From the sequence record NC_070873.1: a DNA stretch of 64,000 bases. The stretch is one strand, 5' to 3'. Of the stretch, positions 24,663 through 25,106 are shown piece by piece (position 1 is the stretch's first letter; every line of letters starts with the position of its first letter). The stretch comes from Escherichia phage St11Ph5. Position numbers and translations under genes: made by a program. The notes under the pieces are model-generated. The model saw only the letters and a program-made list of their open reading frames with translations. It was not told where the DNA came from and did no database searches.

Positions 24663-25106
24663 ATGCAAATCATTTTGAACCAGTCCGAAGTAGAAGCTGC
24701 TGTACAGGCTTATGTCGATGATCAAATCAATCTTGCTGGTGACATCAATATTGTCATCAATGCAGATGGTACTGCCTCCGTTGGTATTAATGAAGAGGTA
24801 AGTCATGATGATGACACCCCACCCGTGGTAGAGAAGAAGACTCGTCGTTCTCGTAAGAACCCACAAGAAGCTAAACATCGTCCGGTAGAACCAGAACCGG
24901 AAGAAGTAGCTGAAGAGGTAAAGGTAGAAGAAACCCAGACCTCTACTGGTGGTCAGAACGAGAGTTCTACGCCGGAACCTGAAGAAGAAGCAGTAACTGA
25001 ACCAGAAGCACAAGAAGAAGTTGTGCAGGAAGAAGTTAAGGCTGAAGAACCAGCAGAAAAACCTGCTACTAAGCCTTCACTGTTCGCTGGCCTTAAACGT
25101 AGTTAA
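24663..25106 (+). CDS. highly acidic low-complexity protein
   Basis: 147 aa, C-terminal half dominated by E/P/V repeats (PEPEE, EEV). Confidence 0.5.
   Translation: MQIILNQSEVEAAVQAYVDDQINLAGDINIVINADGTASVGINEEVSHDDDTPPVVEKKTRRSRKNPQEAKHRPVEPEPEEVAEEVKVEETQTSTGGQNESSTPEPEEEAVTEPEAQEEVVQEEVKAEEPAEKPATKPSLFAGLKRS

Follow-up and report, generated by a model that had tools for sequence, protein, structure and literature searches.

The open reading frame (ORF) at positions 24663..25106 (+) of a 64,000-nucleotide stretch of Escherichia phage St11Ph5 (NC_070873.1; the whole stretch analysed is hereafter called the window) was found to encode a homologue of gp47 of phage N4. In this protein family, a small N-terminal domain (N-domain) is followed by a basic patch, a net-negative disordered linker and a conserved C-terminal tip, and this tip carries the same core motif as the termini of the phage single-stranded DNA (ssDNA)-binding protein (SSB). 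In addition, the genes of the family were found beside, or fused in-frame with, those of Holliday-junction resolvases, of which three kinds were distinguished. We propose, at roughly even chances, that gp47 may serve as an accessory subunit or flexible tether tied to the phage Holliday-junction resolvase.

A family-wide gene of the N4-like phages

The ORF, bounded exactly by its ATG and TAA codons (stop included in the above coordinates), specified a protein of 147 amino acids. In tblastn searches it was recovered from 67 phage records with the full protein and from 176 GenBank phage records with the N-domain consensus as the query, and the homologue search assembled a family of 686 protein clusters around it; on account of this conservation, the ORF is a real gene. 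The PHROG scan assigned the entire product (residues 1–147 of 147) to phrog_7641, described as "unknown function", with an E value of 5.3e-70, together with a second match to phrog_18842 (E 1.9e-12). BLASTP aligned its N-terminal ~75 residues with N4 gp47 (YP_950525; E 2e-8, 33% identity over 79 residues). Like the ORF, the N4 gene immediately follows gp46 and is succeeded by the tRNA region and the virion RNA polymerase (vRNAP) gene, the gene order being identical, and both proteins have a KHRPV basic motif and an acidic linker, whereas N4 gp47 differs from the window protein in having a six-residue insert, KATRGD, in its N-domain.

Searches of the protein against Pfam, NCBIfam and PDB sequences gave nothing meaningful, the sole hits being Menin (E 0.21) and SDR fragments. 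A nuclease domain was not found in the protein itself, the nuclease being encoded by a separate upstream gene, and, unlike N4SSB, the protein showed no ssDNA-binding core, as judged from the lack of a match to phrog_743, to Pfam and, for the N-domain, to any fold. The product is a member of the N4 gp47 family, and is not an SSB, a nuclease or a known DNA mimic.

The 5.5 kb surrounding the ORF were 96.8% identical to Escherichia phage vB_EcoP_ShWW44, and 93–95% identical to further phages of the genus Gamaleyavirus such as ECBP1 and Bp4; the window is itself a Gamaleyavirus, of the N4-like Schitoviridae. The genes upstream encode, in order, a primase (N4 gp43), a Sak4-like ATPase (gp44), an N4SSB homologue (gp45) and a RuvC-like resolvase (gp46), and the ORF belongs to this middle-gene replication/recombination module, not to the early anti-host genes. 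While the primase, Sak4, N4SSB and resolvase all have assigned functions, gp47, conserved across the whole Schitoviridae, has nevertheless been a "hypothetical protein" since the annotation of N4. Indeed, in the papers searched, it appeared only as a hypothetical protein, a gene-table entry or a landmark, and no description of its linkage to the resolvase or of the terminal motif discussed below was found in that literature.

With 28 Glu and 7 Asp against 9 Lys and 5 Arg residues, the protein has a calculated net charge of −21 and an isoelectric point (pI) of 4.30, and its net charge per residue was the lowest among the window ORFs of at least 80 amino acids. The preliminary description, which was made from the sequence alone, had called the product extremely acidic, and these values agree with it. 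The charge was, however, unevenly distributed, residues 1–45 having −8, residues 76–147 having −16, and the last 12 residues (TKPSLFAGLKRS) having +3. As the tip is basic and hydrophobic, the protein is not acidic throughout; that description overlooked the tip and a basic motif at residues 53–76, as well as the acidity of the N-domain itself. The strings quoted there, EPEPEEVAEEVKVEE and QEEVVQEEVKAEE, are both present, although they do not constitute true repeats: Tandem Repeats Finder (TRF) detected no tandem repeat in the DNA of the ORF, and the apparent protein repeats are thus compositional bias only, which excludes a tandem-repeat origin of the acidic stretch. An antisense ORF at 24642..25013 was likewise dismissed as a by-product of the GAA-rich codons, not a separate gene.

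The N-domain (residues 1–45, 24663..24797 (+), net charge −8) was predicted by AlphaFold2 (AF2) to comprise a helix (residues 7–21) and a β-hairpin (28–32/38–42). In the run using a 26-sequence alignment, the predicted local distance difference test (pLDDT) score was 83–91 for residues 1–40 and ~47–55 for residues 81–130, compared with only 62 in a single-sequence run. This prediction of a folded N-domain and a disordered acidic region bore out the earlier expectation of a globular N-terminus of about 45 residues preceding a low-complexity half. Structure and profile comparisons recognized no known fold in the N-domain. Across the Schitoviridae homologues it spans 45–53 residues, with the consensus MQITLNQxEIexAl..YV..qI.I..g..I.IdlkAgRGe.GfsAtlDI, of which the six-residue KAGRGE insert is missing in the clade of the window.

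The N-domain is followed by the basic motif (residues 53–76, PPVVEKKTRRSRKNPQEAKHRPVE, 24819..24890 (+)), which has a local net charge of +3 to +5 and is kept in the Enquatrovirinae-type homologues, including that of N4 (KKESKERKHRPV); more widely, 18 of the 22 lineages compared have a net positive charge in the first third of their linker. The acidic disordered linker proper (residues 77–134, 24891..25064 (+), pLDDT ~47–55) is rich in E, P, V, A, T and Q. Between lineages its length varies from 27 to 122 residues and its sequence is unalignable, while its net charge is negative in all 22 (−2 to −15). At the end stands the tip (residues 135–147, PATKPSLFAGLKRS, 25065..25103 (+)), which reads KPSLFAGLKRS in the window and has K-P-S-L-F-A-G-L-K-R as its core. 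This core was 99% conserved among 170 close relatives, and, apart from the N-domain, the tip was the sole part conserved across deep divergence, with the family pattern P-K-[PK]-S-[LI]-F-[AG]-[GN]-L-(K/R), also written [KR]-x-S-[LI]-F-[GA]-x-L-K, and an invariant Phe (24 lineages).

The relatives compared here were drawn from an exhaustive search of 50%-identity representatives, from IMG/VR loci and from GenBank phages. The common plan of N-domain, basic patch, net-negative disordered linker and tip was found in ~25 divergent Schitoviridae lineages, and persisted where the SSBs are merely 33–40% identical. The minimal forms of 87–93 amino acids consist of the N-domain, ~30 acidic residues and a ...SLFG tip; another homologue search yielded only short forms or fragments (64–93 amino acids), which confirmed the N-domain, short acidic linker and LF tip. 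In many homologues the net charge was far weaker (−3 to −10), with the N-domain and tip still conserved. All of the 176 GenBank records were those of N4-like phages, the hosts being Escherichia, Klebsiella, Salmonella, Erwinia, Achromobacter, Rhizobium, Sinorhizobium, Agrobacterium, Pseudomonas, Stenotrophomonas and Xanthomonas. With residues 1–75 as the query, the exhaustive search of representatives returned only 13 clusters, which, with the exception of two low-complexity/repetitive proteins, were of the same family, and there was thus no sign of the domain beyond the N4-like phages.

The annotated end of the N4 reference gp47, ...KKYRKKRLKNQYKPNLLCLQV, is unlike the window tip, whereas PMBT57, an isolate of the N4 species, has a tip (AKPSLFAGLKR) identical to it. 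At the level of the loci, the reference gene (L002:9679-10113, corresponding to NC_008720 31678-32112) ends in ...EEEKKYRKKRLKNQYKPNLLCLQV and the PMBT57 gene (L043:1501-1944) in ...EEEKEVQEEEAKEPVQAKPSLFAGLKR. The A-run of the N4 reference, near position 32060 of NC_008720, is one A shorter than that of PMBT57 (GAAGAAGAAAAGAAG vs GAAGAAGAAAAAGAAG), and the frame is consequently shifted, the N4 DNA still encoding KPSLFAGLKR in another frame. The annotated C-terminus of N4 gp47 is thus probably wrong, owing either to a sequencing error or to a genuine frameshift.

Linkage to resolvases and the shared terminal peptide

In nearly every lineage examined, the gp47-family gene lies directly downstream of a Holliday-junction resolvase gene. 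In the window, this neighbour (24107..24661 (+), 184 amino acids) encodes the N4 gp46 homologue, a RuvC-like resolvase (PHROG 159, E 1.9e-42) that is labelled likewise in related phages, and its stop codon precedes the ATG of the ORF by 1 nucleotide. Across the family the adjoining resolvase takes three forms, namely, the phrog_159 RuvC-like, the phrog_1770 and the RusA-like types. The RuvC-like form was found in the window, N4, KP8-like phages, Zuri, RiverRider, phiEaP8, phiAxp-3 and several metagenomic lineages (by our locus labels, L007-L016 apart from L015, L019, L023, L032, L036, L037 and L040), and the phrog_1770 type in marine and other lineages (L015, L017, L020, L022 and L024). Direct PHROG scans of the resolvases were confined to those of the window, L032 and L017, and the other labels of these two types were given by tblastn with the window resolvase and by reading of the upstream ORFs. 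Agrobacterium phage OLIVR1 (L039) represents a looser case, in which a 54-amino-acid ORF intervenes between an apparently truncated RuvC-like gene of 145 amino acids and the gp47 homologue.

The RusA-like type (PHROGs 1682, 21721, 14238 and 34) occurs as a separate gene 1 nucleotide upstream in Pollock and FSL SP-058, and with a 10-nucleotide overlap in L034. It is fused in-frame to the module in Rhizobium phage RHph_I1_6 (gp064), Pseudomonas phage ZC03 (gp13), Sinorhizobium phage ort11 (gp064) and L026. In the fused resolvases (PHROGs 14238, 21721, 33948 and 1682), the C-terminal 130–150 residues reproduce the N-domain, the linker and a K-S-I/L-F-G tip; the window differs in that its module is a separate gene whose neighbour is RuvC-like. 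The existence of these fusions accounts for the weak match of the window protein to positions 145–263 of the 311-position "RusA-like" profile phrog_14238, which is the non-RusA part of that profile. A Foldseek search of BFVD further retrieved the "RusA" of Roseobacter phage RD-1410Ws-07 (222 amino acids) and a 372-amino-acid protein of a Delftia phage, both of which are likely to be further fused relatives. The preliminary description had named homologues clearly annotated as structural or replication proteins of defined fold as what would speak against it; such homologues were found in part, in that those of the Rhizobium, Sinorhizobium and Pseudomonas phages form the C-terminal part of annotated RusA-like resolvases.

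The fused ORFs were also found to keep a Shine-Dalgarno-like GAGGA, AGAGGA or GGGAG sequence 6–9 nucleotides ahead of the module's conserved internal ATG (L027:3602-4402, L028:3599-4441, L038:2090-2905 and L026 from 3584 onwards), which suggests that such genes may yield both a fused and a free product. The replacement of one resolvase type by another while the module stays in place, together with the in-frame fusions, is our principal reason for believing that module and resolvase act together; conserved synteny by itself would be a weaker reason.

The SSB of the window begins with MSLFSNLKEK (23304-23333) and ends with GGKSLFGKR (24078-24104), both of which share the S-L-F motif of the gp47 tip. 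Similarly, N4SSB starts with MSNLFGNL and ends with ...AAKSLFGKK. Throughout the Schitoviridae, a peptide of the S-L-F-[GS]-x-L-K type was present at both ends of the SSB, the C-tips being KSLFGKK, KKLFG, RPSLFGKK, RKSLFANKK, PTKSLFAK and similar, and the N-termini MS(x)LF[GS][NK]LK, MGIFSTLT and MFQNL; no mention of the N-terminal copy was found in the papers searched. The SSB termini and gp47 tips thus have S-[LI]-F-[GAS]-x-L-K in common, and this sharing of the core motif is solid. Among the real genes of the window, a terminal [ST][LIM]F[GASN] was confined to the SSB, at both ends, and to this ORF. A further candidate, a 102-amino-acid ORF at 55585-55893 (+) starting with MASLFSPKS, lies antisense within a tail-spike-like gene of 945 amino acids (55591-58428 (−)) and is almost certainly no gene.

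Within individual phages, the tip and the SSB termini appeared to vary together. In phiAxp-3 the SSB N-terminus ...NLFGNLKE is paired with the gp47 tip ...SLFGNLGQ, and in RiverRider MFQNL with GLFQHL; in Pollock the SSB C-tip PTKSLFAK is paired with the gp47 tip PTKSLFARN, and in L029 and L034 both the SSB C-tip and the gp47 tip are acidic. In permutation tests that ignore phylogeny, the comparison with the SSB N-terminus of the same phage, which was devised with the pattern already in view, scored 180 against 135.9 ± 17.2 for shuffled pairs, with 0.6% of the shuffles reaching 180. For the flanks of the SSB C-tip, the observed score was reached by 15% of the shuffles in the first version, which was not significant, and by 4%, which was marginal, after the N4 correction and the addition of Pollock. 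We regard this co-variation as suggestive.

The resemblance to N4SSB extends to the architecture, since the C-terminal activating region of that protein is likewise a peptide that terminates a low-complexity linker and in which basic residues follow the core K-x-S-L-F-G/A, and its gene is located two apart from gp47 in the same module. In contrast, the N4SSB linker is Gly/Pro/Ala-rich and basic, whereas that of gp47 is acidic, and in the gp47 tip an additional G/N-L stands ahead of the basic pair, which brings it nearer to the SSB N-terminus (MSLFSNLK) than to the SSB C-tip. More generally, a disordered linker closed by a conserved Phe-containing tip is the architecture of SSB-type interaction tails, as in E. 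coli SSB (DDDIPF), T7 gp2.5, T4 gp32 and the SSB of phage HK620 (NDYPPF), where a short conserved tip contains an aromatic residue. Those tips are acidic, whereas most lineages have a basic gp47 tip, an acidic one occurring only in L029 and L034; moreover, the gp47 tail is carried by a non-SSB protein tied to a nuclease. Tails of this kind recruit genome-maintenance proteins: in HK620, which has a Sak4-SSB pair as the window does, Sak4 is brought to SSB-coated ssDNA by the six C-terminal residues of its cognate SSB (PMC5928155). In N4SSB, S260, K264 and K265, all of which fall within the C-terminal KSLFGKK, were reported to form the "activating region" through which late transcription is stimulated (Miller et al. 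1997, cited by PMC2784036), and the protein acts via the C-terminus of the RNA polymerase (RNAP) β' subunit without requiring ssDNA binding (PMC4496689). A terminal peptide of the gp47 type is therefore a proven protein-docking element as far as SSB tips are concerned, and by analogy the gp47 tip may act in the same manner.

Proposed role of gp47 and alternative explanations

In the proposed mechanism, the N-domain would hold the resolvase, in trans in the window and N4 but in cis in the fusion proteins, while the net-negative disordered linker would act as a flexible spacer giving reach and may also electrostatically mask the DNA-binding face of the nuclease. The tip KPSLFAGLKR would be a short linear motif for docking, equivalent in type to the peptides at the two ends of the phage SSB, and would dock where the SSB termini dock, whether on SSB-coated ssDNA itself or on a shared partner such as the Sak4-like gp44, the replisome or the host RNAP β'. 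Docking would bring or restrict the resolvase, so that junction cleavage would be placed or licensed at recombination and replication intermediates, and junction resolution would be coupled to recombination-dependent replication. Whereas the domain plan, the conserved tip, the linkage and fusions with three kinds of resolvase and the motif shared with the SSB were observed directly, we infer from comparative genomics the physical contact between N-domain and resolvase, the place at which the tip docks and any regulation exerted by the linker. The possibility raised in the preliminary description of a disordered replication accessory factor came close to the comparative evidence, which sharpens it to a resolvase-linked protein with an SSB-like terminal peptide.

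If this proposal holds, a function would be given to a family-wide gene, and the Holliday-junction resolvase would be seen to possess an SSB-like docking tail, supplied in trans or by fusion. The "activating region" of N4SSB would then be one copy of a peptide used at three termini of the module, which would reopen the questions of what the peptide binds and by what means replication and recombination are linked to late transcription in N4. A more ambitious version, which we consider rather doubtful, would treat S-[LI]-F-[GA]-x-L-K as a single terminal peptide "code" displayed at the two ends of the SSB and on the resolvase tether, where the copies would compete for one pocket on the SSB or on a hub including RNAP β'. 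The state of ssDNA and junctions would thereby be coupled both to resolution and to the late-transcription switch, with gp47 as the adaptor and the fused RusA providing tethered and free forms.

Several points weigh against the proposed partnership with the resolvase. Because the N-domain is acidic and without a recognizable fold, its assignment as a resolvase-binding element is a guess. The Shine-Dalgarno-like sequence and ATG at the fusion junctions may mean that the module is still made separately there, and the fusions themselves may trace to merely one or two events. Gene order is strongly conserved in the N4-like phages, and the adjacency could be inherited synteny. In the lineage L029-L031, a short form of gp47 comes right after the SSB gene, with no resolvase seen in the contig. 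The "RusA-like" and "RuvC-like" labels obtained no match in Pfam or among PDB sequences, both of which were searched, and hence rest on PHROG profiles only. As for the terminal peptide, S-L-F is a short motif, and the design of the permutation tests described above weighs in the same direction.

Activation of late transcription via β', with S260, K264 and K265 as key residues, is the sole function of the N4SSB tip to have been mapped by experiment, and it may be asked whether gp47 is instead a modulator of late transcription whose tip mimics the activating region and binds the β' C-terminus, so that its position beside the resolvase would be incidental. It would then work as an anti-activator or timer competing with the SSB, or as a co-activator. 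The gp47 tip does keep the Ser and the Lys-Arg pair, and the β' target is described as highly conserved (PMC4496689), which fits the conservation of the tip across phages of α-, β- and γ-proteobacteria. Nevertheless, the basic pair stands at +4/+5 after the Phe in gp47 and at +2/+3 in the SSB, the tip is closer to the SSB N-terminus than to the C-tip, and in many lineages one of the two proteins, or both, has no terminal lysines (KKLFG, SIFSKAS, and the acidic tips of L029 and L034). This explanation also leaves the in-frame RusA-like fusions unexplained, and we judge such a role, in either form, improbable. The presence of the motif at both ends of the SSB would be most simply explained by self-association, and the co-variation of the gp47 tip with the SSB N-terminus could accordingly point to a regulator of the SSB itself, with the tip filling the pocket for the SSB's own terminal peptides, through which cooperative assembly would normally proceed, and the linker mimicking ssDNA in the groove, so as to cap, chaperone or unload filaments. 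Acidic disordered tails that occupy ssDNA-binding grooves are established for E. coli SSB, T7 gp2.5 and T4 gp32 (discussed in PMC5928155). This explanation, which overlaps with the tether proposal in that the latter also allows the SSB as the docking site, gives no role to the conserved N-domain, does not explain the resolvase fusions and must accommodate a linker acidity as variable as −2 to −15, and it too appears unlikely.

The S-L-F of the tip also fits positions 3–5 of QL[SD]LF, the consensus of β-clamp-binding motifs, and the motif is situated at protein termini, as is often the case for such motifs; the SSB and gp47 might thus both dock on the sliding clamp DnaN, whose pocket is conserved across hosts, through a degenerate form of it. 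A Gln is indeed found upstream in a few lineages (RQSLFGQK, KQSLFGPK and PQKSLFAR). In most sequences, though, both Gln 1 and the hydrophobic residue 2 are missing, K, P or R being typical there, RNAP β' is the partner known for the N4SSB tip, and no report of the use of a clamp in N4 replication was found; docking on the clamp seems very improbable. The leading idea of the preliminary description, that of an acidic protein which imitates DNA or counteracts the host's nucleoid proteins or restriction enzymes, drew on the strong negative charge (net −21, pI 4.3), and that charge is all that favours it. The known DNA mimics are rigid folded proteins, whereas the acidic part of the present protein is predicted to be disordered and is conserved neither in length nor in sequence, so that a folded DNA mimic is unsupported. 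Furthermore, no match above noise to Ocr, ArdA or similar proteins was obtained in Pfam or NCBIfam, the gene resides in the replication/recombination module and not among the early genes, and the N-domain and tip are conserved even in the many homologues of much weaker acidity, some homologues being fused to resolvases. This idea is disfavoured, and we give it hardly any weight.

Neighbouring genes and downstream region

Among the upstream genes of the module, the Sak4-like ATPase/ssDNA annealing protein, homologous to gp44, is encoded at 22512..23264 (+) (Pfam AAA_24, E 5e-11; PHROG 124, E 1.2e-49). As a member of the same recombination module, and by analogy with HK620, it is a candidate docking partner of the tip. 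The N4SSB homologue (gp45) of 267 amino acids is encoded at 23304..24107 (+) (PHROG 743, E 3.6e-88).

Downstream of the ORF, two small conserved ORFs were located on the + strand. The one at 25115-25276 encodes a hydrophobic protein of 53 amino acids assigned to phrog_19025 with a weak "membrane protein" match, and the other, at 25338-25508, encodes 56 amino acids from an internal Met of an 88-amino-acid ORF (phrog_14773, E 1.6e-42). The following ~1.7 kb (25510-27240), which corresponds to the "RNA locus" of the preliminary description, held no convincing ORF. Within it, ARAGORN predicted a single tRNA-Ala(CGC) at 25908-25979, and Rfam gave sub-threshold matches to tmRNA_permuted at 26073-26176 (31 bits vs a gathering score of 47) and to beta_tmRNA at 26123-26225. 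Relatives annotate assorted tRNAs or "tRNA-Pseudo/OTHER" in this region, which may hold degenerate tRNA-like genes.

In the marine/metagenomic N4-like loci L029:1157-2183 and L031:28-1817, an ERF-type annealase or an HNH endonuclease is encoded beside the SSB instead of Sak4. The gp47-like gene of this lineage specifies 89 amino acids, and the tips of its SSB (DEAELFA) and gp47 (DEVLFGE) are both acidic. Finally, the SSB gene of Shigella phage pSb-1 (L004:2649-3442) was recovered in two pieces, which cover query residues 1-86 and 88-267 and are each annotated as an SSB gene; this split suggests that the record contains a frameshift or a sequencing error.

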